Assembly: GCF_988243305.1 (NCBI RefSeq)
Contig: NZ_OZ547136.1
Length of the DNA: 64,000 bases
Direction: 5' to 3' (one strand)
Below the pieces are notes generated by a model. The model did no database searches and was not told where the DNA came from. It saw nothing but the letters and a program-made list of their open reading frames with translations. Made by a program: the position numbers and the translations under genes. Positions 6,882-30,381 of this stretch are shown in pieces (within the stretch, counting starts at the first letter, position 1; every line of letters starts with the position of its first letter).

Positions 6882-6923
6882 CAAATTGGTGCGGGGCAAC
6901 CCGCACATTTCAGGATGTTAGGA

Positions 6924-7538
6924 ATGACCCATTTTTCACAGCAAGATAATTTTTCTGTCGCGGCGCGCGTGTTGGGCGCGCTGTTTTATTACGCTCCAGA
7001 GAGTGCGGAAGCCGCACCTCTGGTTGCGGTACTCACCCGTGACGGCTGGGAAACTCAGTGGCCTCTACCCGAAGCGTCATTAGCGCCGCTGGTGACGGCT
7101 TTTCAGGCACAGAGTGAAGAGACTCGCGCCCAGGCCTGGCAGCGTTTGTTTGTCGGCCCGTGGGCACTGCCGTCACCGCCGTGGGGGTCGGTCTGGCTGG
7201 ATCGCGAATCTGTGCTGTTTGGCGATTCAACATTGGCACTTCGTCAGTGGATGCGCGAGAAAGGCATTCAGTTTGAAATGAAGCAAAACGAACCGGAAGA
7301 TCATTTTGGTTCACTGCTGTTGATGGCTGCGTGGTTGGCGGAGAATGGTCGCCAGACAGAATGCGAAGAATTGCTGGCATGGCACCTTTTTCCGTGGTCA
7401 ATACGTTTTCTTGACGTTTTTATCGAAAAAGCAGAACACCCTTTCTACCGTGCACTGGGTGAACTGGCTCGCTTAACGCTGGCGCAATGGCAATCACAAC
7501 TGTTAATTCCTGTCGCGGTTAAACCACTCTTTCGATAG
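6924..7538 (+). CDS. dmsD: Tat proofreading chaperone DmsD
   Basis: MTHFSQQDNFSVAARVLGALFYY... is recognised as DmsD (204 aa). The start is chosen at the K-12 N-terminus within the 6915 ORF. Confidence 0.93.
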   Translation: MTHFSQQDNFSVAARVLGALFYYAPESAEAAPLVAVLTRDGWETQWPLPEASLAPLVTAFQAQSEETRAQAWQRLFVGPWALPSPPWGSVWLDRESVLFGDSTLALRQWMREKGIQFEMKQNEPEDHFGSLLLMAAWLAENGRQTECEELLAWHLFPWSIRFLDVFIEKAEHPFYRALGELARLTLAQWQSQLLIPVAVKPLFR

Positions 7539-7731
7539 GATCACCGTAATATTGCCGGATGGTGGCGATTACGCGCAATTCGGCAATAATAGGTTACAGT
7601 GTCACGTTTTTTATCTCTTAAAGCACGCACTGCTTTTGCGTCTGGCCTCTTTTGCCGCAAAATAGTCGCCCGTGTTTCATTGCCCATTTCTGCTCATGCA
7701 TCATCTACACATCTATCCGGATCTGCGCACT

Positions 7732-8988
7732 ATGTTCCGCCGTCTGCTTATCGCAACAGTCGTCGGTATTCTCGCGGCCTTTGCCGTTGCCGGGTTTCGT
7801 CATACGATGCTGCTACTGGAGTGGTTGTTCCTCAATAATGACTCGGGCAGTCTGGTCAATGCAGCGACAAATCTTTCCCCGTGGCGACGGCTGCTAACTC
7901 CGGCGCTCGGCGGACTGGCGGCGGGTTTGTTGCTGATGGGCTGGCAGAAATTTACCCAGCAACGCCCTCATGCGCCGACCGATTACATGGAAGCGTTGCA
8001 AACCGATGGGCAGTTTGATTACGCAGCAAGCCTGGTTAAATCGCTTGCCTCTCTGCTGGTAGTAACCAGCGGCAGTGCAATTGGTCGCGAAGGTGCGATG
8101 ATTCTTTTAGCTGCCCTTGCCGCCTCCTGTTTTGCCCAACGTTTTACGCCACGCCAGGAGTGGAAATTATGGATCGCCTGTGGAGCTGCGGCGGGAATGG
8201 CTGCGGCCTATCGCGCCCCGCTTGCTGGCAGTTTATTTATAGCCGAAGTGCTGTTTGGCACTATGATGTTGGCCTCTCTCGGCCCGGTGATTATTTCCGC
8301 CGTCGTGGCGTTGCTGGTTAGCAATCTGATTAATCATAGCGACGCGTTACTCTACAGCGTACAACTCTCAGTGACGATTCAGGCTCGTGACTATGCGCTG
8401 ATTATCAGTACAGGTGTGCTGGCAGGTCTGGGCGGACCACTGTTGTTAACGTTAATGAACGCCTGTCATCGTGGATTTGTAAGTCTCAAACTTGCGCCGC
8501 CCTGGCAACTGGCACTGGGCGGGTTGATCGTGGGTCTGCTTTCCCTGTTCACACCTGCAGTGTGGGGCAACGGCTATAGCACCGTACAATCCTTTTTAAC
8601 CGCCCCGCCACTGTTAATGATCATTGCCGGGATCTTCCTCTGTAAACTGTTTGCCGTGCTGGCGAGTAGTGGTTCTGGCGCGCCCGGTGGTGTCTTTACA
8701 CCGACGCTATTTATCGGTCTTGCCATTGGCATGTTGTATGGTCGTAGCCTGGGATTATGGTTCCCTGATGGCGAAGAAATTACGCTTTTACTCGGATTGA
8801 CCGGGATGGCGACACTGTTGGCGGCAACCACGCACGCGCCGATTATGTCGACGTTGATGATATGTGAAATGACCGGGGAGTATCAGCTACTCCCCGGTTT
8901 ATTGATTGCCTGCGTAATTGCGTCGGTAATTTCGCGGACGTTACACCGTGACTCTATCTACCGCCAGCACACTGCGAAGCATAGCTAA
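7732..8988 (+). CDS. clcB: Voltage-gated ClC-type chloride channel ClcB
   Basis: [17 protein letters not shown]... gives 418 aa from the internal ATG of the 7672 ORF. ClC motifs GSAIGREG and GxFxP (GGVFTP) are present. Confidence 0.93.
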
Positions 8989-16329: not shown

Positions 16330-16466
16330 ATGGCAAAGCCGATCATCACGCTCAATGGCCTAAAAATCGTCATTATGTTGGGAATGCTGGTCATTATTCT
16401 CTGCGGTATCCGTTTTGCCGCCGAGATCATCGTGCCGTTTATTCTCGCATTATTTATTGCTGTTAT
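16330..16466 (+). pseudogene. tqsA: tqsA (AI-2 exporter) 5' fragment, codons 1-45, truncated by the insertion
   Basis: [45 protein letters not shown] then runs into island DNA (IYNLFHITR*). The rest of the gene resumes in frame at 31788. Confidence 0.95.
16458..16466 (+). repeat. attL core TGCTGTTAT
   Basis: Identical 9-mer at 31787-31795. Joining the flanks restores the tqsA reading frame (..FIAV|[10 protein letters not shown]..). Confidence 0.85.
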
Positions 16467-16540
16467 ATATAACTTATTTCACATAACACGTTGATTTAAT
16501 TAAATAATTTTCACCGCAAAAAGTGCCAAAAATCGCAAAA

Positions 16541-16606
16541 TGACTACACCAGTGACTACACCGTTCGGTGCACTGTATGAAACAACGTGGAACAAATAGA
16601 CACAAG
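16541..16606 (+). repeat. Left arm repeat: TGACTACACC x2 followed by 10-bp-phased AACAA units
   Basis: TGACTACACCAGTGACTACACC is identical to 31637-31658. The downstream AACAACGTGGAACAAATAGACACAAG resembles 31678-31705. Candidate integrase/excisionase arm sites. Confidence 0.7.
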
Positions 16607-16825
16607 AAATATACAGGCGGATCATCTTTCCAGGGGGAAGCGCACCAATTCATGAGGGGCGTTAATGTCGATATGGGGATCCCCACCTACCGGAATTTTT
16701 TTCCGGTTAAACGTTAATCAGGCTGGTGGGCTTTACCTGTTCGGTAGGTGTTATGATTATCGTAATACCTTTCCCCCAATGGGGTAAAAGCATCAACCGT
16801 AACGAAAGTCGTTATGGTTGCCACT

Positions 16826-16899
16826 GATACCCCAAATTTGGGTATCACGAGTAAGACCCAAAATCTGGGTGTTACTCTTACTACCCAAACTACGGGTAG
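16826..16899. repeat. Three tandem inverted-repeat units of the form ACCC-N5-7-GGGT, starting about 26-30 bp apart
   Basis: GATACCC-caaattt-GGGTATC (16826-16846), ACCCA-aaatc-TGGGT (16856-16870) and CTACCC-aaactac-GGGTAG (16881-16899). They lie in non-coding DNA. Confidence 0.6.
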
Positions 16900-16918
16900 T
16901 TTCCGTAGTTTCATGGTC

Positions 16919-16938
16919 GAGTTGCAGATCTGCAACTC
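16919..16938. repeat. Perfect 20-bp palindrome GAGTTGCAGATCTGCAACTC
   Basis: Read directly; the sequence is its own reverse complement. It lies 20 bp from the third inverted-repeat unit. Confidence 0.8.
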
Positions 16939-17231
16939 CCCCATTAACCACAGGCGAATTTCCGCCTTCGGTCATTCCTTAATCATCTGCGTAATCATAA
17001 TGATTATTCAGCAAGCGCAATTTTGCACTTTGCTTAAAGTTCAGCGAGTTACCGCGCCGACTTCCTCAAATTGAGGTTTCCGAAAATATCAGCGGGTTAG
17101 CGATTAAGCTGATCATTAATTAAACTGCGAAAATTTCGTAGTTTGTGACTGTCTTTCAGGCAGCTTGTTAACAGTCCTCAGAAGCGAGGGATGTAGCCAC
17201 CCATTTTTGGTCCGTCGGGAATATCAACCAG

Positions 17232-17513
17232 TTACCGCCGCAACCGCTCCGGCTTCTTCCAGTGGTACGTTATTTTCTCCTTCTCCCGATACATCTCCAC
17301 GCGGCGACGGTAGGCCAGCAACTCAAGAACTCTGGTTCGTATGTTGCGCATATCCACGCCATTAAGTTCTATACCATCACGGCGCATCACCTCAGCAACA
17401 ACACGCGCATAGTTTTCGGCTGTCACGCTGTCCGGCTGCGTGGCCTGTTCGTCAGCCTGCTGGCTGATTCCGGCAACGCGGCGGATTAATCCCGTTATTT
17501 CGGCTTCTGTCAT
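17232..17513 (-). CDS. Hypothetical protein (93 aa), last gene of the packaging operon
   Basis: ORF directly downstream of terL (13-nt gap). It is charged with a basic C-terminus, and I recognise no family. Confidence 0.55.
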   Translation of the reverse strand: MTEAEITGLIRRVAGISQQADEQATQPDSVTAENYARVVAEVMRRDGIELNGVDMRNIRTRVLELLAYRRRVEMYREKEKITYHWKKPERLRR

Positions 17514-17526
17514 GCTGCTGACCTCA

Positions 17527-19188
17527 TTACACCCCGCTAAATTCTTCCAGTTTCTGGCGGTGGCTGTCGCTTATATCAAAAGCAAAATCCTCATGCTCTG
17601 CCTGGAATGTACCAAACGCCATCAGCGCCGCCACGCTCGGGTCTATCTTGTTCGGTGATTTTTTCTTGTTCGGCTTGATATTGGCGTTCGCGTCACTCTG
17701 CATCACGACGTTACTCATCGACCAGGACAACACCGGATCGCCACGATGCACAATCACCCTGCGGTTAACAAAAACTTCGAACGATTTCGCCGCCGGACTG
17801 AATCTGAGGTAGGTTTGCGGGAACGGCTCCACCTCAAAACCTGCCCCCTGTAATTGCGTTCTGAGATGCGTGGCGTTCCACGTATCAAAGCCCACCAGCC
17901 TGATATTAAATTTCTCCGCGTCCTGCATGATGTCATCTCTGATCCGGTCGTAATCAATGCAGTCGCCAGGCGTTGTGCGTATCCAGCCTGCTTTAGCCCA
18001 CTGACGATAGATGGCGCGGTTTTTATTGGCGGGGTTCTGTAGCTGAAATTCCGGCAGATAGTGACGGGAAACCAGCATAATGGTTTTACCGACCGGAAAG
18101 GCATAGCACACGCTGGAAATATCGCTGGTTGATGATAAGTCCAGCCCCGCGTAACACTCCTGGCCGTGTAAATCTTCCTCCGTGAACGTTCCGGCACACT
18201 CAGCCCATGCGCCGTTACCCATCCACGGGGTAGCCCCCAGGCACCAGATATTAAATCGCTTTGTCATCATCTCCACCCACTGCGACGGAATACCCCGCGC
18301 TTTCTGGATGGTTGAGGCCAGTTTTTCACGATCCACGGAAACATCAATATTAGGGTTCGCCTTTATCCACATCGCCGGATCATCAACCTCGTTTTCGTCG
18401 TCCAGTTCGTAAATCAGTACAAAAATTGAATCGTTGACCTCTTCGCCGTCCAGGATCTGGCAGCAATAATCATAGTGCTGCTTACAGGCTGAAACGACGT
18501 TACTGCCTGATGTGGTAATAGCAAATAACAGCCCTTCGGGACGTGCGCCCATCCCCAGCTCAAGCGCGGAATAAACGCCGTTATCGGGGTGCAAGTGGTA
18601 TTCGTCCACGATGGAAAGGCTGGGGTTTGTTCCCTCGATGGTTGCCGCTTTTGCTGCCAGCGGCTTTAACAGGCTGTTGCTTTTCGGGTGTATCACCTTA
18701 TGCGCCTGAATATTCACCCGCCTGCGTAACGGTCGGGATAAAAGGCACATCTGACGCGCATCATCAAAGACGATCCGCGCCTGGTCACGGCTCACCGCTG
18801 CGGTGTAAATATCCTGCTGACCGTTCTCCATAATCAGAAACCAGTTAGCCAGAATCGCGGCGGTCGTGGATTTCGCATTTTTGCGCGGCACTTCGATAAA
18901 GGCGCTCGTGTATTTGCGCCGTCCGGTGGCCTTAACCTTAAAGCCGAGGATGCACGCAAAGGCGAACTGCTGCCACGGCTCCAGCTCAATGGGTCTGCCA
19001 CGCATCGGCCCTTTTACGTGCGGGCACACCCTGGAAAAGGCAATAAACCGCTCCACAACCTCACGATCGAACGTGTAAAGGGGGCTTTCAAGGTCCGAAA
19101 AGTACCGTTTAACGGCCTGTTTCAGCCGTTTACAGGCCGGAATTTTGCCCGTTTTTACGTCTTCTGCGTACTTATTCCAGGCGGTCAA
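17527..19188 (-). CDS. terL: Terminase large subunit
   Basis: 553-aa ORF with Walker-A-like region VPRKNAKST, DEYH Walker B and a C-terminal nuclease-like half. Its position after TerS is typical of Terminase_1-family TerL. Confidence 0.88.
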   Translation of the reverse strand: MTAWNKYAEDVKTGKIPACKRLKQAVKRYFSDLESPLYTFDREVVERFIAFSRVCPHVKGPMRGRPIELEPWQQFAFACILGFKVKATGRRKYTSAFIEVPRKNAKSTTAAILANWFLIMENGQQDIYTAAVSRDQARIVFDDARQMCLLSRPLRRRVNIQAHKVIHPKSNSLLKPLAAKAATIEGTNPSLSIVDEYHLHPDNGVYSALELGMGARPEGLLFAITTSGSNVVSACKQHYDYCCQILDGEEVNDSIFVLIYELDDENEVDDPAMWIKANPNIDVSVDREKLASTIQKARGIPSQWVEMMTKRFNIWCLGATPWMGNGAWAECAGTFTEEDLHGQECYAGLDLSSTSDISSVCYAFPVGKTIMLVSRHYLPEFQLQNPANKNRAIYRQWAKAGWIRTTPGDCIDYDRIRDDIMQDAEKFNIRLVGFDTWNATHLRTQLQGAGFEVEPFPQTYLRFSPAAKSFEVFVNRRVIVHRGDPVLSWSMSNVVMQSDANANIKPNKKKSPNKIDPSVAALMAFGTFQAEHEDFAFDISDSHRQKLEEFSGV

Positions 19189-19528
19189 GCTCGTCCTCTT
19201 CTTCTGTTTCCGGTGGATTTTTACGGCGGCTTATCGGGTCAAAACCGAGCAAGGAGGCCATTTTTATCATCACCCTTTCAGCGTCGGATTTTGCGCTTAA
19301 TGCGGGGTTTCTGCTCTCGCCGCCCTGACTGTTAACAATGCTGAACCCGCGCGCCGCAAGGTCTGCAACGGCTTTCCGGTAAATGGAGTAGTTGACACAA
19401 TACAGTTCCAGATTGCTCCAGTCGGCGGGGGTCAGGTCTCCCCGTTCCGCAAGCTGCCGCGATTTTTCCCGCCACTGCTTCACGGCGATGTCATCCAGGT
19501 AGGCGGGGGCTTTCGGTGGTCTTGCCAT
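19172..19528 (-). CDS. terS: Terminase small subunit, P27 family
   Basis: 118 aa. MARPPKAPAYLDDIAVKQWREKSRQLAERGDLTPADWSNLELYCVNYSIYRKA...GFDPISRRK matches the P27/Terminase_4 pattern. It overlaps terL by 17 nt. Confidence 0.85.
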   Translation of the reverse strand: MARPPKAPAYLDDIAVKQWREKSRQLAERGDLTPADWSNLELYCVNYSIYRKAVADLAARGFSIVNSQGGESRNPALSAKSDAERVMIKMASLLGFDPISRRKNPPETEEEDELDRLE

Positions 19529-19651
19529 ACTTATTTTTTCGCCAGATTATTTTTCAAAAAATTCCCGTGCATAAAAATTTGAGGAGGCGTTCGGTGCCCG
19601 GCGGGGTCGGGTTTGTCCTGAAAACGCCCCCCACCCCGTCATACAGCCTCA
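19529..19651 (-). other. Putative cos region (GC-rich segment with nested inverted repeats between the HNH-side genes and terS)
   Basis: Non-coding 123 bp containing GGCGTTCGGTGCCCGGCGGGGTCGGGTTTGTCCTGAAAACGCCCCCCACCCCG. The HNH / gap / TerS arrangement is that of HK97-like cos phages. The cleavage site itself cannot be read from the sequence. Confidence 0.35.
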
Positions 19652-19825
19652 TCAGCGATTGCGGAAACATTCCATAACCTCGCGGTCACGGTCGGTTAAT
19701 CGCTTCGCTGTGATGCGTTCTGCGCGTCCTGACGCTTTATCTTTATGCCCTGTTTCCTGTGTCTTCCATGCGTCACGCTGCCTTATAAGTCCACGGATAA
19801 GGCGGTTTTGTTCCCGCTCATTCAT
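19652..19825 (-). CDS. Small basic hypothetical protein (57 aa), start overlapping the HNH stop
   Basis: The ATG lies inside GCTGATGAATGA, overlapping the HNH stop (coupled arrangement). Product MNEREQNRLIRGLIRQRDAWKTQETGHKDKASGRAERITAKRLTDRDREVMECFRNR is Arg/Lys-rich. It is the 3' third of the 134-aa track ORF, whose remainder overlaps HNH. Confidence 0.4.
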   Translation of the reverse strand: MNEREQNRLIRGLIRQRDAWKTQETGHKDKASGRAERITAKRLTDRDREVMECFRNR

Positions 19826-20258
19826 CAGCGTCATACATCCAGTTATTGCGGTTAGCGGACCGTTCTTCCTCTTCACGAAATCCACCTGCGGCACGCTTGC
19901 TTTTTGTTGCCGGATCAAGCCATTTCGTTTTCTGGTTATGACACGCCTGACACAATGGCTGATGGTTCCATTCGGGCCAGAAGAGAACATCATCGCCGCC
20001 ATCGATGGGGATAATGTGATCCACCACCACGGCGGGCGTATATATCCCCTTCTCAAGGCATCGCACGCATAACGGGTTTTTACTCAGATACATGGCGCGG
20101 TATTTGTCCCACTGTCTGGAGTACCCACGCGCGCGGCGGTGTCCTCGTCTGGCATCCTCTGCACGCCATGCCGCCCGCCTGTGCTCCTCACACTTACCGG
20201 ACTTAACGCGCCTGTTACAGCCTGGTTCTGTACATCGTCTTAATGGTTGCCACGGCAT
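19818..20258 (-). CDS. HNH endonuclease (terminase-associated)
   Basis: 146 aa with CxxC...VDHIIP...N...LCxxCH HNH/zinc motifs (CVRC, DHIIPIDGG, CQACHNQKT), adjacent to the terminase genes. Confidence 0.88.
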   Translation of the reverse strand: MPWQPLRRCTEPGCNRRVKSGKCEEHRRAAWRAEDARRGHRRARGYSRQWDKYRAMYLSKNPLCVRCLEKGIYTPAVVVDHIIPIDGGDDVLFWPEWNHQPLCQACHNQKTKWLDPATKSKRAAGGFREEEERSANRNNWMYDADE

Positions 20259-20554
20259 CAGTACACCCCCACATCACGGTAAGCCGTCCAGAGTGCGCCT
20301 ATCGTCATGGGTACGCGCGTTTTTGCGTTATCCGCGACAATCTGGCGATTTTCATACAGGTGAGCGATAAACATCATGCAGCCAATCTTTATGGCTGGCG
20401 TGAACTCCAGCCCGTCATCAAAGCGCCTGCCTATGTGTATCTGGCACGCCTCAAGCGATGCGGCAATGTATCCGCTGATTAACTGGTCTTCATCGTCGCC
20501 ATCGATGCGGCAATGGAGTTTCACTTCTTCCAGGGTGATAAGTTCTTCTGTCAT
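20258..20554 (-). CDS. gp6-like head-tail connector protein
   Basis: 98 aa. MTEELITLEEVKLHCRIDGDDEDQLISGYIAASLEAC... is the typical Phage_connect_1 N-terminus. The stop overlaps the HNH start (TGATG). Confidence 0.8.
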   Translation of the reverse strand: MTEELITLEEVKLHCRIDGDDEDQLISGYIAASLEACQIHIGRRFDDGLEFTPAIKIGCMMFIAHLYENRQIVADNAKTRVPMTIGALWTAYRDVGVY

Positions 20555-20889
20555 TTTTCCGCGCCCTCACGACAAAGAATTTCAAGGCGTGTCCTGGCGG
20601 CATCCGGCAACGGTTGCCCGATGATATTCAGTACACGCCCCGCCAGCGGCCCTGTATTGACCTTTATCCGACTGGTGGCGTTGATGTCCTTCCGGTAGCG
20701 TATCCATATCCTTACCGTTCCAGTCGCCAGCTCTGCACCTGATGAAATGGCCTCCTTGCTGCTGATCATGTTCACGCTTGCCCAGAGTGTGTGACCGTCC
20801 ACCCACGTTTCGAGTATTTCGCCGGTTATATCCCTGGTCTGTTTCAGGGTCTGAATCGTTACCCTGTCACGCAGTCGCCCTATGTTCAT
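20551..20889 (-). CDS. Head-tail joining (head closure/adaptor, gp7-like) protein
   Basis: MNIGRLRDRVTIQTLKQTRDITGEILETWVDGHTLWASV...VRIWIRYRKDI matches the Phage_H_T_join pattern. ATGA overlaps occur at both ends. Confidence 0.8.
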   Translation of the reverse strand: MNIGRLRDRVTIQTLKQTRDITGEILETWVDGHTLWASVNMISSKEAISSGAELATGTVRIWIRYRKDINATSRIKVNTGPLAGRVLNIIGQPLPDAARTRLEILCREGAEK

Positions 20890-22097
20890 TCCGGTTTTTC
20901 TCCCTCGCTGATTTTTACTTCCTGTTTCCATGCCTGGCTGAACTCATCACCACCATCACGCGGGGACAGCCCTTCACGTTCGCGGGCTTCGTTCGGGCAC
21001 ATAACGCCGGATTTGATGCCGCGTTCATAGGTGGCAAAGCGTTCGCCAGGTGTGGCCCGTAACAGGTCCGCGCTGTCAAACTCCACCTGATACCGGATAC
21101 CAGGTACAGGCGAGGCCACCAGCAGGGCGTTTTTTATCTGCTGCTCAAAGTTCGCCAGCCACGGGCGCATCGTCATGGTGAGAAATGCGCGGCTTGCCTC
21201 GCTGAAGTTGCTGTAGGTGCTGTTGCTGTATTCCTGCAAAAAAATCGGCGAGACGTTGAACATTCGGGCGATGTCTTCAATGGTGAAGCGACGGGAGGCC
21301 AGCCATTCGGCATCCTGATTACTCATGCCCAGCTGCTGATAGCTCATCCCCCCTTCAAGGATGGGCGTTTTTCCGGCGTTTCTGGCCCCTTTGTAGCGTT
21401 CCAGTGCGGCTAATGCCTGTTTGCCCTTCACGCCGTCCAGCCATTCGCCTGACGTGATAACCCCTGCCGCCATCATGCCATCACGCATCACGCTCGCGCC
21501 GTGGCGTTGTTGGGCCAGCCCAAGCCCCAGCGATTCGCGGCAGATGGTTACAGGTGAGCGCCCCATAAAACCGTCATCCGTGGAGTAACGAAGGTGGAGA
21601 ACCTCCCACGGTAAATAGTTGCGGGTGTTTCCGGTGTAGGCGTCAGTGATGCAGTAGCGCCAGTTATGATCACCTGTCTGCTCCACGTTCACCGACTGCG
21701 GCGGGTAAGGATGTAAAGCCACCGGAAAACCATCACGCCCCCACTGAATCACCGCATAAGCATTACCGTTTAACAGGCAGTGGCGGATCATCATTCGCTT
21801 AAACTGGTAGGGAGTCTGCCACGCGTTCGGGCGCTCGTTGAGGATGTGATCGACCGGATGAGAATCAAGCCACTCGCGGGCCTCCTTCCCCTTCTCATTG
21901 CGTACCAGGTACAGGTAACACGGCATGGTAGCCACCGCCTCAGAGATGACCGTCACGGCGTTCATGACGGCGGGCAGTGATTCCGCTGTCCCCGATGATA
22001 CGTACTCACCCGCCCCCGTGTTCGATGTGCCAGCCAGCGCCATAAACTCATCAAGCGTCATGCTGCGCTGCTCTTTTTTTCTTCTGAAAGGCCACAT
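20886..22097 (-). CDS. Portal protein, HK97 family
   Basis: 403 aa with typical HK97-type portal features (..ESLPAVMNAVTVISEAVATMP.., C-terminal acidic tail). It lies next to the protease. Confidence 0.88.
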   Translation of the reverse strand: MWPFRRKKEQRSMTLDEFMALAGTSNTGAGEYVSSGTAESLPAVMNAVTVISEAVATMPCYLYLVRNEKGKEAREWLDSHPVDHILNERPNAWQTPYQFKRMMIRHCLLNGNAYAVIQWGRDGFPVALHPYPPQSVNVEQTGDHNWRYCITDAYTGNTRNYLPWEVLHLRYSTDDGFMGRSPVTICRESLGLGLAQQRHGASVMRDGMMAAGVITSGEWLDGVKGKQALAALERYKGARNAGKTPILEGGMSYQQLGMSNQDAEWLASRRFTIEDIARMFNVSPIFLQEYSNSTYSNFSEASRAFLTMTMRPWLANFEQQIKNALLVASPVPGIRYQVEFDSADLLRATPGERFATYERGIKSGVMCPNEAREREGLSPRDGGDEFSQAWKQEVKISEGEKPE

Positions 22098-22098
22098 A

Positions 22099-22671
22099 TC
22101 ACACCCCCGCTAAATCCACCCACCAGCGGCGATTATCCGCACGCGGCATTTTTTCGGGGTGCTGCTCATACAGGGAACGGCGGGCCAGCTCCACGCCGGA
22201 ATCGGGGTAAGCCGGTACCGATGTAACGGTAATTTCGTACAGTTCCGCCACCAGCACGGTGCGCACGCATGGATCTGTTGTGGTATCCCATACATCCTTA
22301 CGGGAGCGAAAGCCAAAGCTCATCCCCGAGATGTCCCCACGCTTAACCAGTTCGATAACGTCGCGCCCTGTACTGGTATCCGGTGGGGTCAGTTCAAAGC
22401 GTAACCCTGTTTCGTCCTCTTCCAGTTTCAGCGTGCCGGAACGGGTGCGCCCCAGTAACATGCTGTGGTCATGCTCATACAGGCCGCGAACGTCATTACC
22501 CGCCGCAAGCCACTCAGTAAACGCCCCCCGCTGGAATTTTTCGTAAAACTCCCCCCATAGCAGTTCTGAAAGCTTATCCCAGCGAACAACGTAGCCCGTC
22601 AGCGTACCGGCTCCGCTGGTAGTGATTTCCGATGACCGGATTTCCATACTCTTCATAATTTTTTCACCCAT
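22099..22671 (-). CDS. Prohead maturation protease, HK97 (S78) family
   Basis: 190 aa. ..GYVVRWDKLSE...RGLYEHDHSMLLGRT...GDISGMSFGF.. is the pattern of HK97 gp4-like proteases. It sits between the MCP and portal genes. Confidence 0.85.
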   Translation of the reverse strand: MGEKIMKSMEIRSSEITTSGAGTLTGYVVRWDKLSELLWGEFYEKFQRGAFTEWLAAGNDVRGLYEHDHSMLLGRTRSGTLKLEEDETGLRFELTPPDTSTGRDVIELVKRGDISGMSFGFRSRKDVWDTTTDPCVRTVLVAELYEITVTSVPAYPDSGVELARRSLYEQHPEKMPRADNRRWWVDLAGV

Positions 22672-22710
22672 AAAACACTAAAGGGGCTTTTAAGCCCCTT
22701 CTGTATGCTG

Positions 22711-23868
22711 TTAATCGTCGTCCTGTGGCAGTTCCAGAATCTTGATCGCGTTCGAATCCACCACGCCACCGCCTAAATATTTCTGCGTGAAAATTTTGAT
22801 GAAGCCCGGCTCTGTGAGGTTGTCCGGTCTGGTGCGAACACCTGTTTCGTGATCAACAATGTAGTAACCGCGTTTGAAGTCACCCAGGGCAATAACGTTA
22901 TCCGGCATAAACTCCAGATATTCGACCGGAAGGCCCAGTAACGTATCAGGATCACCCGCCTGTAAACGGTCGCGCCAGATGTAATCACCGTTCGCGTTCT
23001 TCACCTTCTGAAGTTTTGCCGCCGTCGTGGAGTTAACCACCCAGACCGCGTTTTTGCGGTATTTTTTACGTAATGCAAATTTCAGGTCGATCAGCGGGTC
23101 CGCAGATGTCCACGCCAGAGATTCGGAAGGTTTAATTACCTGCAACGTACCAAAATCACGCTCTTTGTCGTTCTTCTCTGCACGGGGTACGGATAAAAAA
23201 CCTTTTGCTTTTTTGTCACCGTCGCCCACAACCAGATCGCTTTCTTCGGTTTCCGTGAAGGTGTCGCCAATCTCGCCCGTCAGCCATGAAAGGATGTCCA
23301 CATCGGAAAAATCCACGATTTCCTGTGTGGTGCGCGGGTACGCATAGACCGGATACAGCTTAATGCTCACCTCGTTAATCTGCGGGGTGCTGGTCTGTTC
23401 GCGTGTCTTACCCTCTTCACCGTGGTTAACGGTCGCACCGCCAGCGGAAACAAGCTGCTTAAACTCGTTGCTGCTGATTTTCTTCACGGTACAGATGCGG
23501 CGCATGGTGGACTCATCCGCCAGCATTCGCATGATTTCGGTGTTCAGTTCGGGGATAACGGTATAACCACCATCAGCGGGAACGCCTGTACTTAATGCGC
23601 GGGTTTCACCTGTCAGAATGTAGTTGCGTAGTTCTGCGGGGTCAGTGGTCTGGCTGCTTTTACCTGGCTTGCTGCGCTCTTCGTCTGCAATGGCTTCAAG
23701 GCGGGAAATGTCTTTATCGAGGGATTCAGCTTTAGCGCGTAATTCGTCAAATTTTGCGCCCTCAGCATCGTTAAGACTGCGGTTTTCTTTTTCCGCGTTC
23801 TCCAGCATGTCGCGCATCTGATTTTTAATGGCGGTTTTCTGCTGGCGTAATTCGATTATTCTCGGCAT
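22711..23868 (-). CDS. Major capsid protein, HK97 fold, with N-terminal coiled-coil delta/scaffold domain
   Basis: ATG at 23868 (MPRIIELRQQKTAIKNQMRDMLENAEKE...) is preferred over the TTG at 23913. The product is 385 aa with a coiled-coil N-terminus followed by a typical HK97-family body. Confidence 0.88.
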   Translation of the reverse strand: MPRIIELRQQKTAIKNQMRDMLENAEKENRSLNDAEGAKFDELRAKAESLDKDISRLEAIADEERSKPGKSSQTTDPAELRNYILTGETRALSTGVPADGGYTVIPELNTEIMRMLADESTMRRICTVKKISSNEFKQLVSAGGATVNHGEEGKTREQTSTPQINEVSIKLYPVYAYPRTTQEIVDFSDVDILSWLTGEIGDTFTETEESDLVVGDGDKKAKGFLSVPRAEKNDKERDFGTLQVIKPSESLAWTSADPLIDLKFALRKKYRKNAVWVVNSTTAAKLQKVKNANGDYIWRDRLQAGDPDTLLGLPVEYLEFMPDNVIALGDFKRGYYIVDHETGVRTRPDNLTEPGFIKIFTQKYLGGGVVDSNAIKILELPQDDD

Positions 23869-24083
23869 AAAAAAAAGTCCTGGGGTTAAGTAAGGAACTC
23901 CAGGACGCGGCAAACACTCAACCGTTTTTCATAAGGAAATCAGCAATCGCACCGATCGTTTTCCCGCCTGGTAATGAATATTGGCGAGCACATTAACAGG
24001 CGGGAAAGTGGCCCCAGCGTCCTGGCACCACGGGCGAGAATAATCATGATTCAGTTCGGGTAAAATATGCCGATCCGCTCAGT

Positions 24084-24110
24084 GAACAACGTGGAACAAC
24101 CACGAACAAA
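24084..24110 (+). promoter_or_regulatory. Three 10-bp-phased GAACAA units upstream of the capsid operon
   Basis: GAACAAcgtgGAACAAccacGAACAAataa lies 216 bp upstream of the MCP ATG, between the terminator at 24121-24150 and the operon. A 23-nt stretch matches 30289-30311 (inverted) with 2 mismatches. Confidence 0.55.
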
Positions 24111-24120
24111 TAATTTACAA

Positions 24121-24150
24121 AAAATAACAAAAAGCCGGATTGCTCCGGCT
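24121..24150 (-). terminator. Rho-independent terminator (minus strand)
   Basis: On the minus strand, AGCCGGAgcaaTCCGGCT is followed by TTTTTGTTATTTTTT. It lies 20 nt after the stop of the 74-aa gene. Confidence 0.8.
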
Positions 24151-24169
24151 GTATGTGCTGTATGGGTGC

Positions 24170-24394
24170 TCAGTCTCTGATCCCTTTCAGAAATTCTATC
24201 AATGCATCTGTCTGTTCAGGATTTACTGCCAGCATTTCACCGGATAGCGCGCAACGAACAAAACCATGATGATCCTTTTCAATCAGTGCGCCCGTCTCCA
24301 GGAATGCGCGGTAATCATTGATGCTCATCGTCTCCATGTTGTCAGCATGGTATTTATCACGCTGTTTTAATATCTCATCAAATTTCATCGGCAT
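24170..24394 (-). CDS. Hypothetical protein (74 aa), moron-like unit bracketed by twin terminators
   Basis: ATG at 24394 is preceded by AGAGGAAAAAACA. Product is MPMKFDEILKQRDKYHADNMETMSINDYRAFLETGALIEKDHHGFVRCALSGEMLAVNPEQTDALIEFLKGIRD. I recognise no family. Confidence 0.6.
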   Translation of the reverse strand: MPMKFDEILKQRDKYHADNMETMSINDYRAFLETGALIEKDHHGFVRCALSGEMLAVNPEQTDALIEFLKGIRD

Positions 24395-24488
24395 TGTTTT
24401 TTCCTCTGTTGTGTCTGTTTGTTTCAGATAGTAACTATGCCTGACCGTGACGAAAACCCGGTAATGCGCCATACCGTTTCAACTGGTG

Positions 24489-24513
24489 CAAAAAAAGCCG
24501 GATTTCTCCGGCT
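24489..24513 (-). terminator. Rho-independent terminator (minus strand), near-duplicate of 24121-24150
   Basis: On the minus strand, AGCCGGAgaaaTCCGGCT is followed by TTTTTTTG, downstream of the PerC-like gene. Confidence 0.8.
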
Positions 24514-24563
24514 GTGTGATTAGCTGTCCTGGTAATTGCGCCATATTTCATCACCAGCACCAT

Positions 24564-24791
24564 CTATCCCCATTTCGGCATAAGTGCGATCGACTGCCTT
24601 TTCAGGTCTCCGTAATTATCCGGTGGCTCCGGTGGCCTCTGTGCCTTCCTGGAACATTCCAGCCGTCGCATCGTGATGTGATGCCGTTCCTTGTCTGTCT
24701 CCACCAGCAGCATGACTTCACCCCATCGCGCCGACGCCCTCCGGTAAAATCCTTTAGCCTCGAGTTCCTCCGCTATGCGGTCATGTACCAT
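24564..24791 (-). CDS. PerC-family (PerC/Pch-like) transcriptional regulator
   Basis: ATG at 24791 is preceded by GGGGGTGAGG, right after the ssb stop. The 75-aa product MVHDRIAEELEAKGFYRRASARWGEVMLLVETDKERHHITMRRLEC... resembles the PerC N-terminal signature (..AE.LE.KG.WRRAA.RW..). Confidence 0.65.
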   Translation of the reverse strand: MVHDRIAEELEAKGFYRRASARWGEVMLLVETDKERHHITMRRLECSRKAQRPPEPPDNYGDLKRQSIALMPKWG

Positions 24792-24801
24792 CCTCACCCC
24801 C

Positions 24802-25212
24802 TCAGAACGGAATACCGTCACCGTAAGGGTCATCGCCTCCCGCTGGTGGCTGATTACCCTGTGTGCCTGTGGTTTTGCGTCTGTTCCCGCCAGGACGTGC
24901 CGCACGGGCACTGATTACGCTGTCTGCAATAACCTGCCAGCCCTGCCGCGTTTCTCCGTTCTGTCCGGTCCACTGGCTTACCTGCATCGTGCCGGATACG
25001 CTGGCAACATCGCCTTTTTGATGTTTAGCCAGGAAGTCGGCCTGTTTGCCAAATGCGATGACCGATAACCATAACGTCGCCTGTCCGTCCTGTGCCTGGC
25101 TGCATGGCAAAGATACCGCCATACGCGCCAGCGTCATCGGTGTGCCCTTGCTGGTCTGTTTTACCTGCGGGTCGTCCACCAGCCGCCCGTAAGCGGCTAT
25201 CTGTGCCGTCAT
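24802..25212 (-). CDS. ssb: Single-stranded DNA-binding protein
   Basis: 136 aa with an OB-fold-like N-terminus, a Gly/Pro/Gln-rich linker and a C-terminal acidic tip ..GGDDPYGDGIPF, the canonical SSB tail. Confidence 0.85.
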   Translation of the reverse strand: MTAQIAAYGRLVDDPQVKQTSKGTPMTLARMAVSLPCSQAQDGQATLWLSVIAFGKQADFLAKHQKGDVASVSGTMQVSQWTGQNGETRQGWQVIADSVISARAARPGGNRRKTTGTQGNQPPAGGDDPYGDGIPF

Positions 25213-25460
25213 AATTCCACCTCTCCGGTTTTAACGTTGATGGTTGTTACCTGTTCCGCTTCGGCAATCTCCCGTTCTGTCAGCGTGGCAAAGTTTGCCG
25301 CCGCCGTGGTCATGAATGCGCTTATCAGGTCGGGATGTTCCTTCGCGTATCCTTCCCGCGTGTGGCGGTCTATCGTTCTGATTGCCACCTTTAAAGCGTG
25401 CTCAGTCATGTCTAACGCTTTATATTTTGGCTCTGTTCTGTCTCTGCGTTTTTGGGTCAT
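25209..25460 (-). CDS. Hypothetical protein (83 aa)
   Basis: ATG at 25460 (MTQKRRDRTEPKYK...) with GAGAGG upstream is preferred over 25490, which would overlap the iterons. ATGA overlap with ssb. Confidence 0.55.
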   Translation of the reverse strand: MTQKRRDRTEPKYKALDMTEHALKVAIRTIDRHTREGYAKEHPDLISAFMTTAAANFATLTEREIAEAEQVTTINVKTGEVEL

Positions 25461-25472
25461 TTCTCGCAACCT

Positions 25473-25662
25473 CTCACTTTTTCGCCTCACTTTTTCAAGC
25501 GTCTCACTTCGTCGCAGTTGGGATTTTCGGTTTTTCTATGTGTGTGTTTCATAAGTATTTTTTTACCCCTCACTTTTGAGGATGTATACAGGTCGAAAAG
25601 TGAGGGAGAGCGGGCTAATTTTGGCCCTCTTTCTATCCCCCTCGCTTTTGCTCCTCACTTTT
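25473..25662. repeat. Iteron array (CCTCACTTTT x7, one inverted) with AT-rich core: putative origin of replication
   Basis: Copies lie at 25473, 25485, 25502, 25568, 25596 (inverted), 25640 (1 mismatch) and 25653. They flank a T-rich stretch at 25520-25565, directly downstream of the helicase gene. Confidence 0.6.
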
Positions 25663-27061
25663 ATAGCGGCGCTACATCATCCCCATCGATACGAATAACC
25701 CCATCTTTTTCCAGCTTGTACAGCCAGCGCCGGAAGTTTTTCATTTCATACCCCAGTTTTTTCATGTCATCACGTAACAGCGGGATCGTGCACTTGTCGC
25801 CGTTCTGTGTGCGTGAACGGATGCACCCCCATAGCGCGGTATGGTTTTCCGTCTTGTTCCCTGCCTCCTCGATGCGCTCCAGTTCAACAGGAGGGCGCGG
25901 ATCATCCACCACTACCAGCGACGTGATTAATTCACCGTCAGCGTCGGTAAAAAGCTCCACCACGCGTAAGTCATATGCGGCTTCTTTGAGTTCCTCCGCG
26001 TCCTTCATTTTGGTGCATGAGATAACCAGCGCTTCGCTTCCTGCGTCCTCCCTGCGTATCCGGTATTCAGCATCCAGCGAAGCACGAAATGCACTGGAAC
26101 CGCGCGCGCCTTTCGTCTCATCCTTGCCGGAATGGTGAACCACCAGCACCGTGGCCCCTGTGCGTCGTTTCAGTTCGTCACAACCACGGATAAACGCCCC
26201 CATATCACGGGAATCATTTTCATCATTCCCACCAAAGCAACGCGCCAGCGTATCCAGAATAATCATGCGTACAGGTTTACCCGTTTCCCGCTCCACCTGA
26301 CGGGCAGCGATAACCATTTCATCAACATCAAGCGGGGCAGCCGGAAAGATGGGGCGGTTTACCAGATACAGATTTTTCACCTGCTCATCGTGCACAACCT
26401 CCCAGGCTTTTACACGACGCGGAACACCTATACCGCCTTCACCAACCACATAGAGAACCGCACCATGTGCAACCCTGCGGCCTCCCCACTGGCGACCAGT
26501 GGCAACATGGCACGCCCACGATCCGGCAAGGAATGATTTATAGGACCCGCTAGCCCCGTATATGCTGCATAGCGATACCGCCGGAATAATCCCCTTAACC
26601 ACGTAATCCAGTTGCGTGTCGTATCCGGTAGATCCAACGCTCATCGGTAGCGTGGTTTTTCGCTGGTGGTTTTTTTCTTCCACCGGCTCTTTCCCGCGCA
26701 CCCGTTCCAGGTATTCGCGCCAGTTCTCCCGCATATGGCTGTGCATCCCTTCGGGGTAATAATTCGCATCAGTTACACCCGCCGCCGCCAGCTTGTGCGC
26801 AATGGCATTAATATTTGATGGCCTGATGTGGCCTGCCTTGTACAGCCGGACACAATAGCGCCCCTCGTCGATGATTCTCAGGTCTGCCAGTTCATCCAGT
26901 TGATCATCAGCCAGCACAACGGGAGGCACATTATCGCCAGCCAGTCGCCCGTCCTGTTCCTGCCACTGTTTCGCATGTGCCCAGGCATCACTACCCGCAA
27001 AAATAATGACTTCGGTCATCTTGTCGTAAGGCTGTTTTTTTAAGTTCGGTGCGCTTTTCAT
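25661..27061 (-). CDS. Replication protein: RepA/AAA_25 (RecA-like) helicase-type ATPase with extra N- and C-terminal domains
   Basis: 466 aa. Features are P-loop-like GASGSYKS, Walker B MIILDT, LVVHHSGKD and ARGSSAF motifs typical of RepA-like helicases. The C-terminal part looks like a winged-helix domain. Confidence 0.75.
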   Translation of the reverse strand: MKSAPNLKKQPYDKMTEVIIFAGSDAWAHAKQWQEQDGRLAGDNVPPVVLADDQLDELADLRIIDEGRYCVRLYKAGHIRPSNINAIAHKLAAAGVTDANYYPEGMHSHMRENWREYLERVRGKEPVEEKNHQRKTTLPMSVGSTGYDTQLDYVVKGIIPAVSLCSIYGASGSYKSFLAGSWACHVATGRQWGGRRVAHGAVLYVVGEGGIGVPRRVKAWEVVHDEQVKNLYLVNRPIFPAAPLDVDEMVIAARQVERETGKPVRMIILDTLARCFGGNDENDSRDMGAFIRGCDELKRRTGATVLVVHHSGKDETKGARGSSAFRASLDAEYRIRREDAGSEALVISCTKMKDAEELKEAAYDLRVVELFTDADGELITSLVVVDDPRPPVELERIEEAGNKTENHTALWGCIRSRTQNGDKCTIPLLRDDMKKLGYEMKNFRRWLYKLEKDGVIRIDGDDVAPL

Positions 27062-27357
27062 TTCTTGCCCCTGAATCCGTTAATCATGGTTTTCAGCTTC
27101 TGGATGTTTGCCCGTGCCCTGGCGTTGCTGGTGGGCACGTTATGCGGCGCGGTCTGTACCAGAGAAAAATCACGCCGGAACTGATAAACAGGCATCACGC
27201 AATCATATTCGTAACCTTCACGGCGGTAGGTTACGCGCCGTTCTTCCACGCCCTTAATCATTACCGTGCCGCCGTACTGGTCGCGGTAAATATCACCGCG
27301 CGTAAATTTAGGGTGAGTGTTGCCACTGGCAGTTAAGCCAGAATATTTAAGTTTCAT
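27058..27357 (-). CDS. Hypothetical protein (99 aa; possibly DUF4222-like)
   Basis: ATGA overlap with the helicase start. GDIYRDQYGGTVMIKGVEERRVTYRREGYEYDCVMPVYQFRRDF resembles a small prophage family, recalled only loosely. Confidence 0.55.
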   Translation of the reverse strand: MKLKYSGLTASGNTHPKFTRGDIYRDQYGGTVMIKGVEERRVTYRREGYEYDCVMPVYQFRRDFSLVQTAPHNVPTSNARARANIQKLKTMINGFRGKK

Positions 27358-27362
27358 TATTT

Positions 27363-27596
27363 TTATTCTCCGGTGTGCTGTTCTTTATATCTGTCGTGCA
27401 ATAGATCTATTTCTTGCAGTTCCATTATTACAGGCTCAAGAAGCGTTATTAATGCCGTGGCAATTCTTGATTTTTGTTTGTCGCGTTCATTGTCGCCAAG
27501 TGTTTCAAGCCATATGCGCAATATTTCCAGCATGTTTTCACTGTGAGAAAGTGCAAGAAATACGCGGTCTATTGTTTCGTGGTAAATATCACGCAT
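27363..27596 (-). CDS. Hypothetical protein (77 aa)
   Basis: Tightly packed minus-strand ORF (MRDIYHETIDRVFLALSH...) whose start lies 2 nt after the upstream stop. Confidence 0.5.
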   Translation of the reverse strand: MRDIYHETIDRVFLALSHSENMLEILRIWLETLGDNERDKQKSRIATALITLLEPVIMELQEIDLLHDRYKEQHTGE

Positions 27597-27597
27597 A

Positions 27598-27819
27598 TTA
27601 ATCCCCGTCCGTCGTTTTTCTTAAAATAACCTCTGTCACGAAATCAGCATAATCGGCGGCGATATTCAGTACATCAAGCCCCGTTGATTTATATTCTCTC
27701 GTGGAAAGTAAGAAAAAAGCCGCTCTAATAAGTTCTGGCATTGACGAAAGCGCATCAGCCGCATCATCAGGAACGCCGGAAAATTCCTGTTTCAGGGAAT
27801 TAAAACGATCATCACGCAT
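27598..27819 (-). CDS. Hypothetical protein (73 aa)
   Basis: ATG at 27819 lies 2 nt downstream of a G9 run (minus strand). Acidic helical protein, MRDDRFNSLKQEFSGVPDD... Confidence 0.5.
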   Translation of the reverse strand: MRDDRFNSLKQEFSGVPDDAADALSSMPELIRAAFFLLSTREYKSTGLDVLNIAADYADFVTEVILRKTTDGD

Positions 27820-28034
27820 AACCCCCCCCCATTTTCACAATCAGCAACAAGAATATTTTTAGCGTCATTCAGCGACCGCGTTGCGATGTATCGGATACAT
27901 TCCAGGGCGAACTGTGTCCGGTCTTTCTGTTCTTCTCCCTGCGCAAGCTCTGCAGTGCATTCAATATCGATAAGCGCGTGCATCAGCGTAGTGAGCGCGG
28001 CGGCTGCTGCGTCCGGTGTGGTTTTATTGCACAT
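27792..28034 (-). CDS. Hypothetical protein (80 aa)
   Basis: ATG at 28034 is preceded by AGGAGG (MCNKTTPDAAAAALTTLMHALIDIECTAELAQGEEQ...). It overlaps the icd-like 3' end by 11 nt. Confidence 0.55.
   Translation of the reverse strand: MCNKTTPDAAAAALTTLMHALIDIECTAELAQGEEQKDRTQFALECIRYIATRSLNDAKNILVADCENGGGLCVMIVLIP
27822..27830. repeat. Homopolymeric C9 (plus) / G9 (minus) tract
   Basis: Read directly: a CCCCCCCCC a. It lies in the 3' end of the 80-aa ORF and in the RBS position of the 73-aa ORF. Confidence 0.95.
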
Positions 28035-28224
28035 GGCACACCTCCTGACGAATACGGGCGGCGAATACAGCAACACAACCGGACGGGCAACGGCTACGCG
28101 CTTCGCGTTCCGTCCAGGCGGTTACGTGGATGATTTGAGATTCTCCGGCACTTAGTGCCAGAAAACGCCACACAAAGGCCGTTTGTGTGTGTATAAGGCG
28201 TGGTATATGATTTACGGCAACCAT
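28024..28224 (-). CDS. Icd-like (host cell-division inhibitor family) small protein
   Basis: ATG at 28224 is preceded by AGGAG. The 66-aa product ..FVWRFLALSAGESQIIHVTAWTEREARSRCPSGCVAVFAARI.. fits the Icd-like pattern (aromatic core, EREAR, FAAR). It is the only credible part of the 344-aa track ORF. Confidence 0.6.
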   Translation of the reverse strand: MVAVNHIPRLIHTQTAFVWRFLALSAGESQIIHVTAWTEREARSRCPSGCVAVFAARIRQEVCHVQ

Positions 28225-28312
28225 AACGGCTCCTAGTTTACGTTGTTGGTTAGACGCCCCGTATGTGTTCCCAGCACTGCGGGGCGTTGATTTTTGTGTA
28301 ATGGCAAGTACA

Positions 28313-28358
28313 ATGGTAATTACCATGTAGGTATAGTAATGAAGGGTAATTACCATGT
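28313..28358. promoter_or_regulatory. Two copies of GGTAATTACCATGT exactly 30 bp apart (first within perfect 14-bp palindrome ATGGTAATTACCAT): putative operators in a divergent control region
   Basis: Copies at 28315-28328 and 28345-28358; the second covers the start codon of the Arc-like gene. A TATAGT -10-like hexamer at 28332-28337 lies between them. Confidence 0.6.
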
Positions 28359-28528
28359 CAACACCATTAGAAAAACGTTCGCCTCCATACCAAATGCGAT
28401 TACCGGAAGACTTCAGAGCGCAGCTAGAAGAAGCAGCTAAGGCCGATGGCGACACATCTTTAGCCACTTGGATTAAACGCGTTCTCCGCAAAGAATTACA
28501 GCAACGCGGCATAGAGCCAAAAGGTTGA
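28355..28528 (+). CDS. Arc/Mnt-family ribbon-helix-helix DNA-binding protein (57 aa)
   Basis: Read manually because it is below the track cutoff: MSTPLEKRSPPYQMRLPEDFRAQLEEAAKADGDTSLATWIKRVLRKELQQRGIEPKG. The beta-strand (YQMRLP) plus two helices parallel P22 Arc (PQFNLRWPREVLDLVRKVAEENGRSVNSEIYQRV). It is one of only two plus-strand genes in the island. Confidence 0.7.
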   Translation: MSTPLEKRSPPYQMRLPEDFRAQLEEAAKADGDTSLATWIKRVLRKELQQRGIEPKG

Positions 28529-28549
28529 ATTTCAGAAGGAGATAAAATA

Positions 28550-28702
28550 ATGAACTGGCTGTTACATACCCTCCCAGGTCGCATTCTCATTGCACTAATT
28601 ATTTTATGGATTTTGTACCAATTCGGTTTTTTCGATTCGCTTTGGAAGCCTGACTGTTCCGTTAACCCTGGCGATGTACTGAAAGGCTGTAAAAATGGCT
28701 GA
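28550..28702 (+). CDS. Small single-pass membrane peptide (50 aa)
   Basis: AGGAGA RBS lies 6 nt upstream of the ATG. Product MNWLLHTLPGRILIALIILWILYQFGFFDSLWKPDCSVNPGDVLKGCKNG* has one TM helix and a two-Cys C-terminal tail. It is followed by two hairpins (28705-28719, 28735-28749). Confidence 0.6.
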   Translation: MNWLLHTLPGRILIALIILWILYQFGFFDSLWKPDCSVNPGDVLKGCKNG

Positions 28703-29057
28703 TCAGGGTTACTCCCTGTAATGCCTTTAACTGGCCCTCTTAAAGAGGGTTGGTTATCTTCGCAGCTCTCTACGTTTTTCGTCGGAACCTCTGAACCTAA
28801 GCAGTGTTGATGTTCAGGAGAACCCGAATACTGTTCGTGTTCGTTGCTCGCCAATTCTCGCGTTTCGCGATAATCAAAATGATTCAATGGGTTGAGATGT
28901 CCGTACGTTAAACGTACGCGGTTAATTTGTACATGCGAATTTCGTCGGCTCAAATTCTGCGCAACCCTGCTTGAGTTATGCAAATAGCACGCGGCTAACT
29001 CACAAGGATTTGAGCGCCCCCAAACGGGGGAGCGCAAAATTTTAGGCATAAGACGCA

Positions 29058-29771: not shown

Positions 29772-29828
29772 GGTTATAGCTCTGTGTTCAGATGATTGAT
29801 GTGTGGCGGCTGCGTGCCGCCAGCGTGA

Positions 29829-30017
29829 TTAATGAACTGCCTTGCAGCTATCCTTCCAGGCCAGAACCTCGGATAAAGACCAGCCAACGGAACGACCGCC
29901 AAGTTTACGACGTGATGGGAATTGTCCGGCCTTTTCCAGGCGGTAGCGACACGTACGGCTAAGGCCGGTTAGTTTTTCGCATTCTTTTTCACGTATAAAC
30001 CGATCAGTGCTTAACAC
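29829..30017 (-). CDS. alpA: AlpA-family regulator / excisionase-like protein
   Basis: 62 aa with a GTG start after AAAGGGGG. ..IREKECEKLTGLSRTCRYRLEKAGQFPSRRKLGGRSVGWSLSEVLAW is the classic AlpA/Phage_AlpA signature. Confidence 0.88.
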   Translation of the reverse strand: MLSTDRFIREKECEKLTGLSRTCRYRLEKAGQFPSRRKLGGRSVGWSLSEVLAWKDSCKAVH

Positions 30018-30166
30018 TATTGCCCCCTTTCGTTTCTTAAAGAGTCATCAGGTGTCTTATTGTGTCGTATTGTTCCCGCTAGAGTGATAAATGGCAAATA
30101 CTGAGGATGTATGATTTACAGAAAATGAAACAGTAAGAATAAAATCTTTTAAATTCATGTTAATAC

Positions 30167-30342: not shown

Positions 30343-30381
30343 CATATACAGTATGCGCATACTGAAAAAACACGAAAAAAA

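Follow-up and report, generated by a model that had tools for sequence, protein, structure and literature searches.

A phage satellite, a capsid-forming phage-inducible chromosomal island (cf-PICI), is integrated within the coding sequence of tqsA in the 64,000-nucleotide stretch of contig NZ_OZ547136.1 analyzed here (the window). Its insertion is a case of ordinary site-specific recombination, mediated by a P4-type integrase, and tqsA is a dedicated attB, a regular target of this integrase lineage in E. coli. We regard it as probable that the cf-PICI entered by means of its own integrase, tqsA being a tolerated, non-essential landing site.

Both the insertion in tqsA and the idea that excision restores the gene are already known as published computational candidates. 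The available text of Bobay et al. 2013 (MBE, PMC3603311) places tqsA among the conserved genes disrupted by prophage integration, and the abstract of Mageeney et al. 2020 (NAR, PMC7192596) names it as a new candidate for "regulated gene integrity" (RGI); the latter paper, in its available parts, has the islands Eco282.16.tqsA, Eco33.11.tqsA and Eco557.15.tqsA, of ~11, 15 and 16 kb. These TIGER islands share with the one described here the target gene and the logic of domain disruption without restoration, and their sizes fit both of the element types found at this site; from site and size we infer that the window island is one of them. In the available sections of the two papers the tqsA elements are not named PICI or cf-PICI and no tqsA-specific experiment is given, and no literature tying tqsA/ydgG to PICIs by name was found. 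Added here are the class of the element, sequence evidence for attP, the occupancy of the site in complete genomes, a comparison with a sister integrase and a structural argument for the loss of TqsA function.

Junctions of the split gene

tqsA starts with the ATG at 16330 and is cut after codon 45/46 (16330-16466), the last base of codon 45 (GTT) being 16464. The 5' stub (16330-16494, plus strand) is a 54-aa ORF made up by codons 1-45 and nine island codons (I-Y-N-L-F-H-I-T-R), closed by a TGA stop at 16492-16494; Ile46 is still encoded by the first island codon, ATA. The 3' part (31788-32693, plus strand) spans codons 44-344 plus the stop and begins with GCT (Ala44). No in-frame ATG is found at the 31788 junction, the ATG at 31786-88 being out of frame, and directly 5' of it the frame is closed twice, by TGA at 31779-81 and by TAA at 31782-84. 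The original prediction had described codons 1-45 followed by nine foreign codons and a stop, and codons 44-344 resuming behind an in-frame TAA. Both descriptions are correct, with the addition that the TGA precedes the TAA.

The 9-bp core TGCTGTTAT is present at attL (16458-16466, plus strand) and at attR (31787-31795, plus strand), and is found also in attB and attP. The identity, reported earlier as the only sequence shared by the two junctions, is exactly 9 bp, because the flanking bases mismatch on either side, and at least 9 bp of identity would be met at a random junction with a chance of ~4e-6. Joining 16330-16466 to 31796-32693 regenerates, as anticipated, an uninterrupted ORF of 344 aa, which matches PDB 7NB6 (TqsA) over residues 1-344 with E = 1e-208. 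In strain 14EC001, which hosts the closest tqsA-resident relative of the island (L001), both tqsA halves are called pseudogenes by PGAP, the 5' one as missing its C-terminus. The data support the view that an integrase-mediated insertion fell within the tqsA coding sequence and that nothing in the island restores either half of the gene.

The event would be a recombination between attP and the dedicated attB, carried out by the P4-type tyrosine integrase at the core TGCTGTTAT in tqsA codons 43-46. The attP arms would bring no replacement for either end of tqsA, and would therefore leave a 54-codon stub (helix H1 and half of H2) and a 3' part without a usable start or a promoter-like site. While the satellite stays in place the gene would be off, to be regenerated upon precise excision. 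Loss of tqsA is possibly mildly advantageous.

Gene content and integrase of the island

The GC content of the island, 51.1%, does not differ from that of the flanks (~50.4%). According to published criteria, cf-PICIs are elements of 10-18 kb, endowed with integrase, regulation and replication modules and with an exclusive packaging module, without lytic genes or a tail module (bioRxiv 10.1101/2025.02.11.637232). The interval between the two cores (16467-31786) measures 15,320 bp, which is within this range, and the genes of the cf-PICI set, identified by Pfam and PHROG profile matches, are all on the minus strand. The gene for a P4-type tyrosine integrase of 409 aa (30382-31611) is at one end, and is followed by an AlpA-family regulator (29829-30017; 5.4e-17) and then by the replication module, which features a RepA-like AAA_25 helicase (25661-27061; 2.4e-43) and a single-stranded DNA-binding protein, SSB (24802-25212; 1.7e-16). 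A Rha-like regulatory protein (29058-29771, minus strand) is indicated by a weak match (1.7e-5, under the Pfam cut-off).

All eight components of the packaging and head module are present. These are the major capsid protein of the HK97 fold family PF05065 (22711-23913; 2.3e-61), the HK97-type prohead serine protease S78 (22099-22671; 7e-48), the portal protein (20886-22097; 7.5e-91), the head-tail adaptor, a head completion/head closure protein (20551-20931; 9.7e-24), the gp6-like head-tail connector (20258-20554; 5.6e-12), an HNH endonuclease serving as packaging accessory (19818-20258; 1.2e-8), the terminase small subunit of the P27/Terminase_4 family (19172-19528; 1.3e-23) and the terminase large subunit (17527-19188; TerL_nuclease 9.6e-50, TerL_ATPase 1.3e-25). 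For the capsid protein the coordinates cover the longest ORF; with the start chosen by PGAP in L001 it would have ~385 aa. The PGAP products of L001 agree with these head and packaging calls. Tail, holin and endolysin families had no match in the scanned ORFs, the small left-end ORFs at 16474-16975 being outside the scan, and neither L001 nor the O157:H7 relative L002 has annotated tail or lysis genes. Since the island corresponds to the published description of cf-PICIs, it is a phage satellite and not a prophage, and the term lysogen, used in the original prediction, is loose.

Additional genes on the minus strand encode a conserved 93-aa protein of unknown function (phrog_1561; 17232-17513), found also in the 11-kb PICIs L003 and L085 described below, and, as an accessory function, a PerC-family transcriptional activator (24564-24911; Pfam 1e-30). 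PerC/Pch homologues regulate LEE in EPEC and EHEC, and STEC lineages are frequent among the carriers of this island family. The island further encodes small Icd-like and unknown proteins and a DUF4222 protein. The accessory region that separates alpA from the replication module (27800-29800) is a mosaic, matched over at most 50% of its length in any complete E. coli genome. A 344-aa ORF (28024-29058) was considered as a cargo gene and set aside, since only its last ~60 residues match Icd-like/repressor families, and the long form is therefore probably spurious; a 57-aa Arc-like ORF (28355-28528) lies on the opposite strand. Rfam searches at gathering thresholds returned nothing across the whole window. 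In L001 an IS1A copy (6897-7594) resides between the head-closure and portal genes, and therefore the L001 element is probably packaging-defective.

The integrase features the architecture of the P4 type, with matches to PF13356 (Arm-DNA-bind_3; 1.4e-18) and PF00589 (Phage_integrase; 2.9e-16), which bears out its earlier assignment; the match to PF22022 is weak and under its cut-off. Candidate catalytic residues, read directly from the sequence and not from a curated alignment, are R249 (ARTVE), H335-x-x-R338 (HDIRRT), H361 and Y370, the spacing from H361 to Y370 being lambda-like. Integrases 100% identical to that of the island were found in three other sequences. Tandem 11-bp repeats sit ~75-130 bp inside either end of the island: two copies of GTGACTACACC at 31636-31658 (plus strand), on the P arm, and the pair ATGACTACACC A GTGACTACACC at 16540-16562 (plus strand), on the P' arm. 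The 11-bp repeat has six matches in the window against 0.48 expected, and four of the six are at the island ends. It is plausible that the GTGACTACACC tandem repeats are arm-type binding sites of the integrase.

The O157:H7 copy L002 (strain 2571), which we take to be the prototype cf-PICI EcCIEDL933, is 94% identical in nucleotide sequence over 85% of the window island; the latter is related to EcCIEDL933. The two integrases are identical at 373 of 409 residues (91%), yet target different sites. L002 resides between phoQ and roxA (attL near 2466-2500, attR near 18054), where its core, TATGYCCAT, begins directly behind the stop codon of phoQ and nothing is disrupted, unlike in the case of the island in tqsA. 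In L002 the arm repeat is TTAACTACACC, in place of GTGACTACACC, and residues 1-42, in the N-terminal arm-binding domain, account for 16 of the 37 substitutions between the integrases. It looks as if arm sites and the arm domain of the integrase co-evolve.

Occupancy of tqsA and the attP junction

The status of tqsA was monitored in 5,426 complete E. coli genomes with a 1,002-nt query derived from the joined flanks. The gene, with its core, is uninterrupted in 5,165 genomes, which identifies attB as the original prediction had it, and is split into two places in 255. The junction of int with the tqsA 3' part (attR side, at least 80% coverage) is found in 246 genomes, corresponding to ~96% of the 257 without an uninterrupted tqsA, and the attL junction in 232. 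Occupancy of tqsA amounts to ~4.5% of complete E. coli genomes, which answers the earlier question of how often related integrases use this site. Carriers include O26:H11 (strain 11368), O103, O111:H11, O55:H7, some O157:H7, and PCN033. In five carriers the tqsA 3' part was compared with that of the window; the differences, of 8-15 nt, point to several chromosomal backgrounds. Only 58 genomes hold at least 80% of the window island, at whatever site, and hence the tqsA site is occupied by a mosaic population of elements. Integrations have thus occurred repeatedly at one position, by a tight clade of integrases carried by two types of elements. Among species-representative genomes, the integrase was detected only as a 91%-identical copy in Shigella flexneri, and use of tqsA outside E. 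coli was not seen.

The attP predicted for the excised element was searched as island right end, core TGCTGTTAT and island left end. The exact 33-nt pattern has no match in viral contigs. A 22-nt pattern is found in a single viral contig, L003 (IMGVR_UViG_3300045988_152974), of 11,098 nt, which has a 119-nt terminal overlap and closes into a 10,979-bp circle. In the metagenome collection the same pattern is found in one contig only, L085 (CYGL01000683.1), where attP (8758-8779) is interior; this contig corresponds to the L003 element, circularly permuted and almost complete. The int/att modules of both are 99.3-99.5% identical in nucleotide sequence to that of the window, and their attP holds a single core. 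L003 and L085 are assemblies of excised or circular forms, of 11-kb classical PICIs and not of the 15-kb cf-PICI, and an attP-like junction may also be produced by a tandem array. For the 15-kb cf-PICI, the excised circle is predicted to feature the junction ...AAATGATAAAA-TGCTGTTAT-ATATAACTTATTT.... As attP is present in two independent assemblies, the crossover falls within the 9 bp, in line with the site originally proposed. Both 15-kb cf-PICIs and 11-kb classical PICIs would accordingly use the tqsA site.

In the contig L007 (IMGVR_UViG_2671180417_000010; 1-1400), lambdoid-prophage DNA with a Hok-family toxin and DUF968-region sequence takes the place expected for tqsA, next to the same 9-bp core and an integrase of 99% identity. 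A second attB or a tandem array was considered for this contig; the junction is missing from all complete E. coli genomes, and for this reason may be an off-target event or an assembly chimera.

Consequences for TqsA and comparison with known systems

In the structure of TqsA (PMC9475539), the pentamer is held together mainly by contacts of helix H1 (T7-F29), which is followed by H2 (Ala31-Trp57), a horizontal helix embedded in the membrane. The gene is broken at codon 45/46, midway through H2, and H1 is thereby cut off from the remainder of the protein. Judged from the sequence, tqsA is very likely a null allele in the carrier as long as the island is resident, in agreement with the original prediction. 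Polar effects are not expected, since the neighbouring genes, YdgV and mdtJI upstream and pntB downstream, are on the strand opposite to tqsA. The role of TqsA in AI-2 export had been taken as established. The biofilm, motility and AI-2 phenotypes of tqsA deletion (Herzberg 2006, as summarised in PMC9475539) stand; the export function is to be toned down, AI-2 being described in the structure paper as one that "still remains a probable substrate" (PMC9475539). The tqsA 3' parts of the carriers examined have no internal stops or frameshifts and their differences, mostly synonymous, are probably older than the integration, both being tests of decay with little power. One carrier has Trp in place of the tqsA stop codon; this stop-loss could be allelic variation or early decay.

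The null assignment would not hold if an N-terminally truncated, functional TqsA were made from V51 or M54 by outward transcription from the island, which we deem very improbable. In-frame starts do occur shortly past the junction (GTG 31809, V51; ATG 31818, M54), and a 95-aa ORF (31494-31781, plus strand), antisense to the 5' end of int and spanning the P arm, reads toward the junction in the frame of the tqsA 3' part. By direct reading, neither start is preceded by a good Shine-Dalgarno sequence, and the upstream ORF is cut off from tqsA by the two in-frame stops. Neither Pfam nor PHROG gave a match to this ORF, which is unlikely to be a gene; in L001 PGAP calls a shorter ORF on the same strand. 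An outward promoter, named in the original prediction as what could rescue the gene, was looked for by a simple sigma-70 consensus search, which weak or non-canonical transcription may escape; no promoter-like site faces the 3' part in 31200-32000 on the plus strand. At both junctions, promoter and terminator scans gave nothing exceeding the shuffled expectation, and int is transcribed away from tqsA. The truncated protein would, moreover, lose H1 and half of H2, and PGAP calls both halves pseudogenes. It is even harder to credit that TGCTGTTAT is a target-site duplication of the transposition type, or that the integration is accidental and tqsA no dedicated site. Duplications of 9 bp are typical of several transposons, and in L007 the same integrase and core lie beside unrelated prophage DNA. 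PICI integrases are also known to insert off-target (PMC10111431). Against this, identical junctions recur in 232-246 genomes, the int junction accounts for nearly all genomes without an uninterrupted tqsA, a tyrosine integrase with flanking arm repeats adjoins the 9-mer, and the 9-mer belongs to the attP of excised circles. The attP and recurrence data effectively refute both variants.

Whether the resident satellite acts as a switch is a separate matter. The original prediction viewed excision as turning tqsA on again, a case of regulated gene integrity, or active lysogeny, in which carriage keeps the gene off and a regulated excision that the cell survives restores it. Plausible in principle, this reading is somewhat disfavoured, and we hold it to be unlikely. 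A conserved domain is disrupted, and neither junction restores it, as one holds a 54-aa stub and the other a 3' part without start. One tight integrase lineage has hit the same position in 232-246 genomes with two element types; that such a clade returns to a conserved coding region is the criterion for regulation adopted by Mageeney et al., and counts against a merely tolerated site. Excised forms exist (L003, L085), the carrier 3' parts examined are free of internal stops and frameshifts, within the low power of that test, and tqsA is a named RGI candidate in the abstract of PMC7192596. With the deletion phenotypes summarised in PMC9475539 in mind, carriage with tqsA off would raise intracellular AI-2, biofilm and motility. 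On the other side, the literature assigns RGI status purely by computation, no host cue is known to regulate excision, and occupancy is ~4.5%, poorly populated sites being deemed probably secondary in the available text of Bobay et al. 2013. Induction of EcCIEDL933 and of Gram-negative PICIs needs helper-activated alpA expression, an alpA mutant being neither induced nor transferred, according to the accessible part of bioRxiv 10.1101/2022.09.08.507074. Excision is therefore normally part of the lytic cycle of the helper; as it would end in lysis, tqsA is, by analogy, probably no host-regulated switch. The non-disruptive site of the sister integrase suggests that the targeting of tqsA may have been selected, and the contrast between the tqsA and phoQ sites can be read two ways, as a recent shift in specificity or as the outcome of selection. 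That the targeting is adaptive, the block of export altering AI-2, biofilm and motility to the benefit of satellite or host and excision restoring tqsA in some survivors, seems doubtful to us; changed cell density and contact with helper phages would be an example of such a benefit.

With tqsA as a tolerated landing site, the preferred reading, the occupants of the site can now be named, as cf-PICIs and classical PICIs with one common int/att module, and through this module tqsA is predicted to be naturally null in ~4.5% of complete E. coli genomes. Studies on AI-2 and biofilm in occupied strains should allow for the predicted loss of tqsA. The tqsA-type and phoQ-type integrases, only 9% diverged, are a convenient pair for the analysis of specificity change. 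Were the switch real, a phage satellite would control a quorum-sensing/biofilm gene in pathogenic O26, O103, O111 and some O157 strains, and the few genes regulated by element excision would gain a satellite-driven case; were the targeting adaptive, tqsA would be the first quorum-sensing gene shown to be under phage-satellite control.

The island is best compared with elements described in the cf-PICI literature by Alqurainy et al. (bioRxiv 10.1101/2022.09.08.507074) and He et al. (bioRxiv 10.1101/2025.02.11.637232). The formation of small capsids which receive helper tails, and induction by the helper via alpA, come from experiments on EcCIEDL933 only, as reported in the accessible part of the former. 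The same source describes six attB sites for the cf-PICI family in E. coli, four of which are common to classical PICIs. Classical Gram-negative PICIs of the EcCICFT073 type, here L003 and L085, share with the island the int/att module, the 9-bp core, left-end sequences and the 93-aa ORF. They differ in size (~11 kb) and in encoding a D5-type primase, a gpE-like capsid protein and a gpD-like decoration protein, and their scanned ORFs, unlike those of the island, include no portal, TerL or connectors. As far as sequence goes, this distribution shows that int/att modules are exchanged between PICIs and cf-PICIs.

In Listeria phi10403S/comK, B. subtilis skin (sigK) and SPbeta (spsM), and the Stx prophage at mlrA, as at tqsA, the integrase splits a conserved coding sequence, which excision restores or, for tqsA, is predicted to restore; mlrA is, like tqsA, a biofilm-related gene of E. 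coli. In these established systems the cell survives excision, which is under developmental or environmental control. The window element, in contrast, is a helper-dependent satellite. The comK, sigK, spsM and mlrA cases are given as known RGI in the available text of PMC7192596. CP4-57 and P4-family islands feature an integrase with the same Arm-DNA-bind_3 and catalytic domains, and AlpA near int. They usually enter the 3' ends of tRNA or tmRNA genes, and the target is preserved. The target of the window island, unlike theirs, is an internal coding site, which is not preserved.
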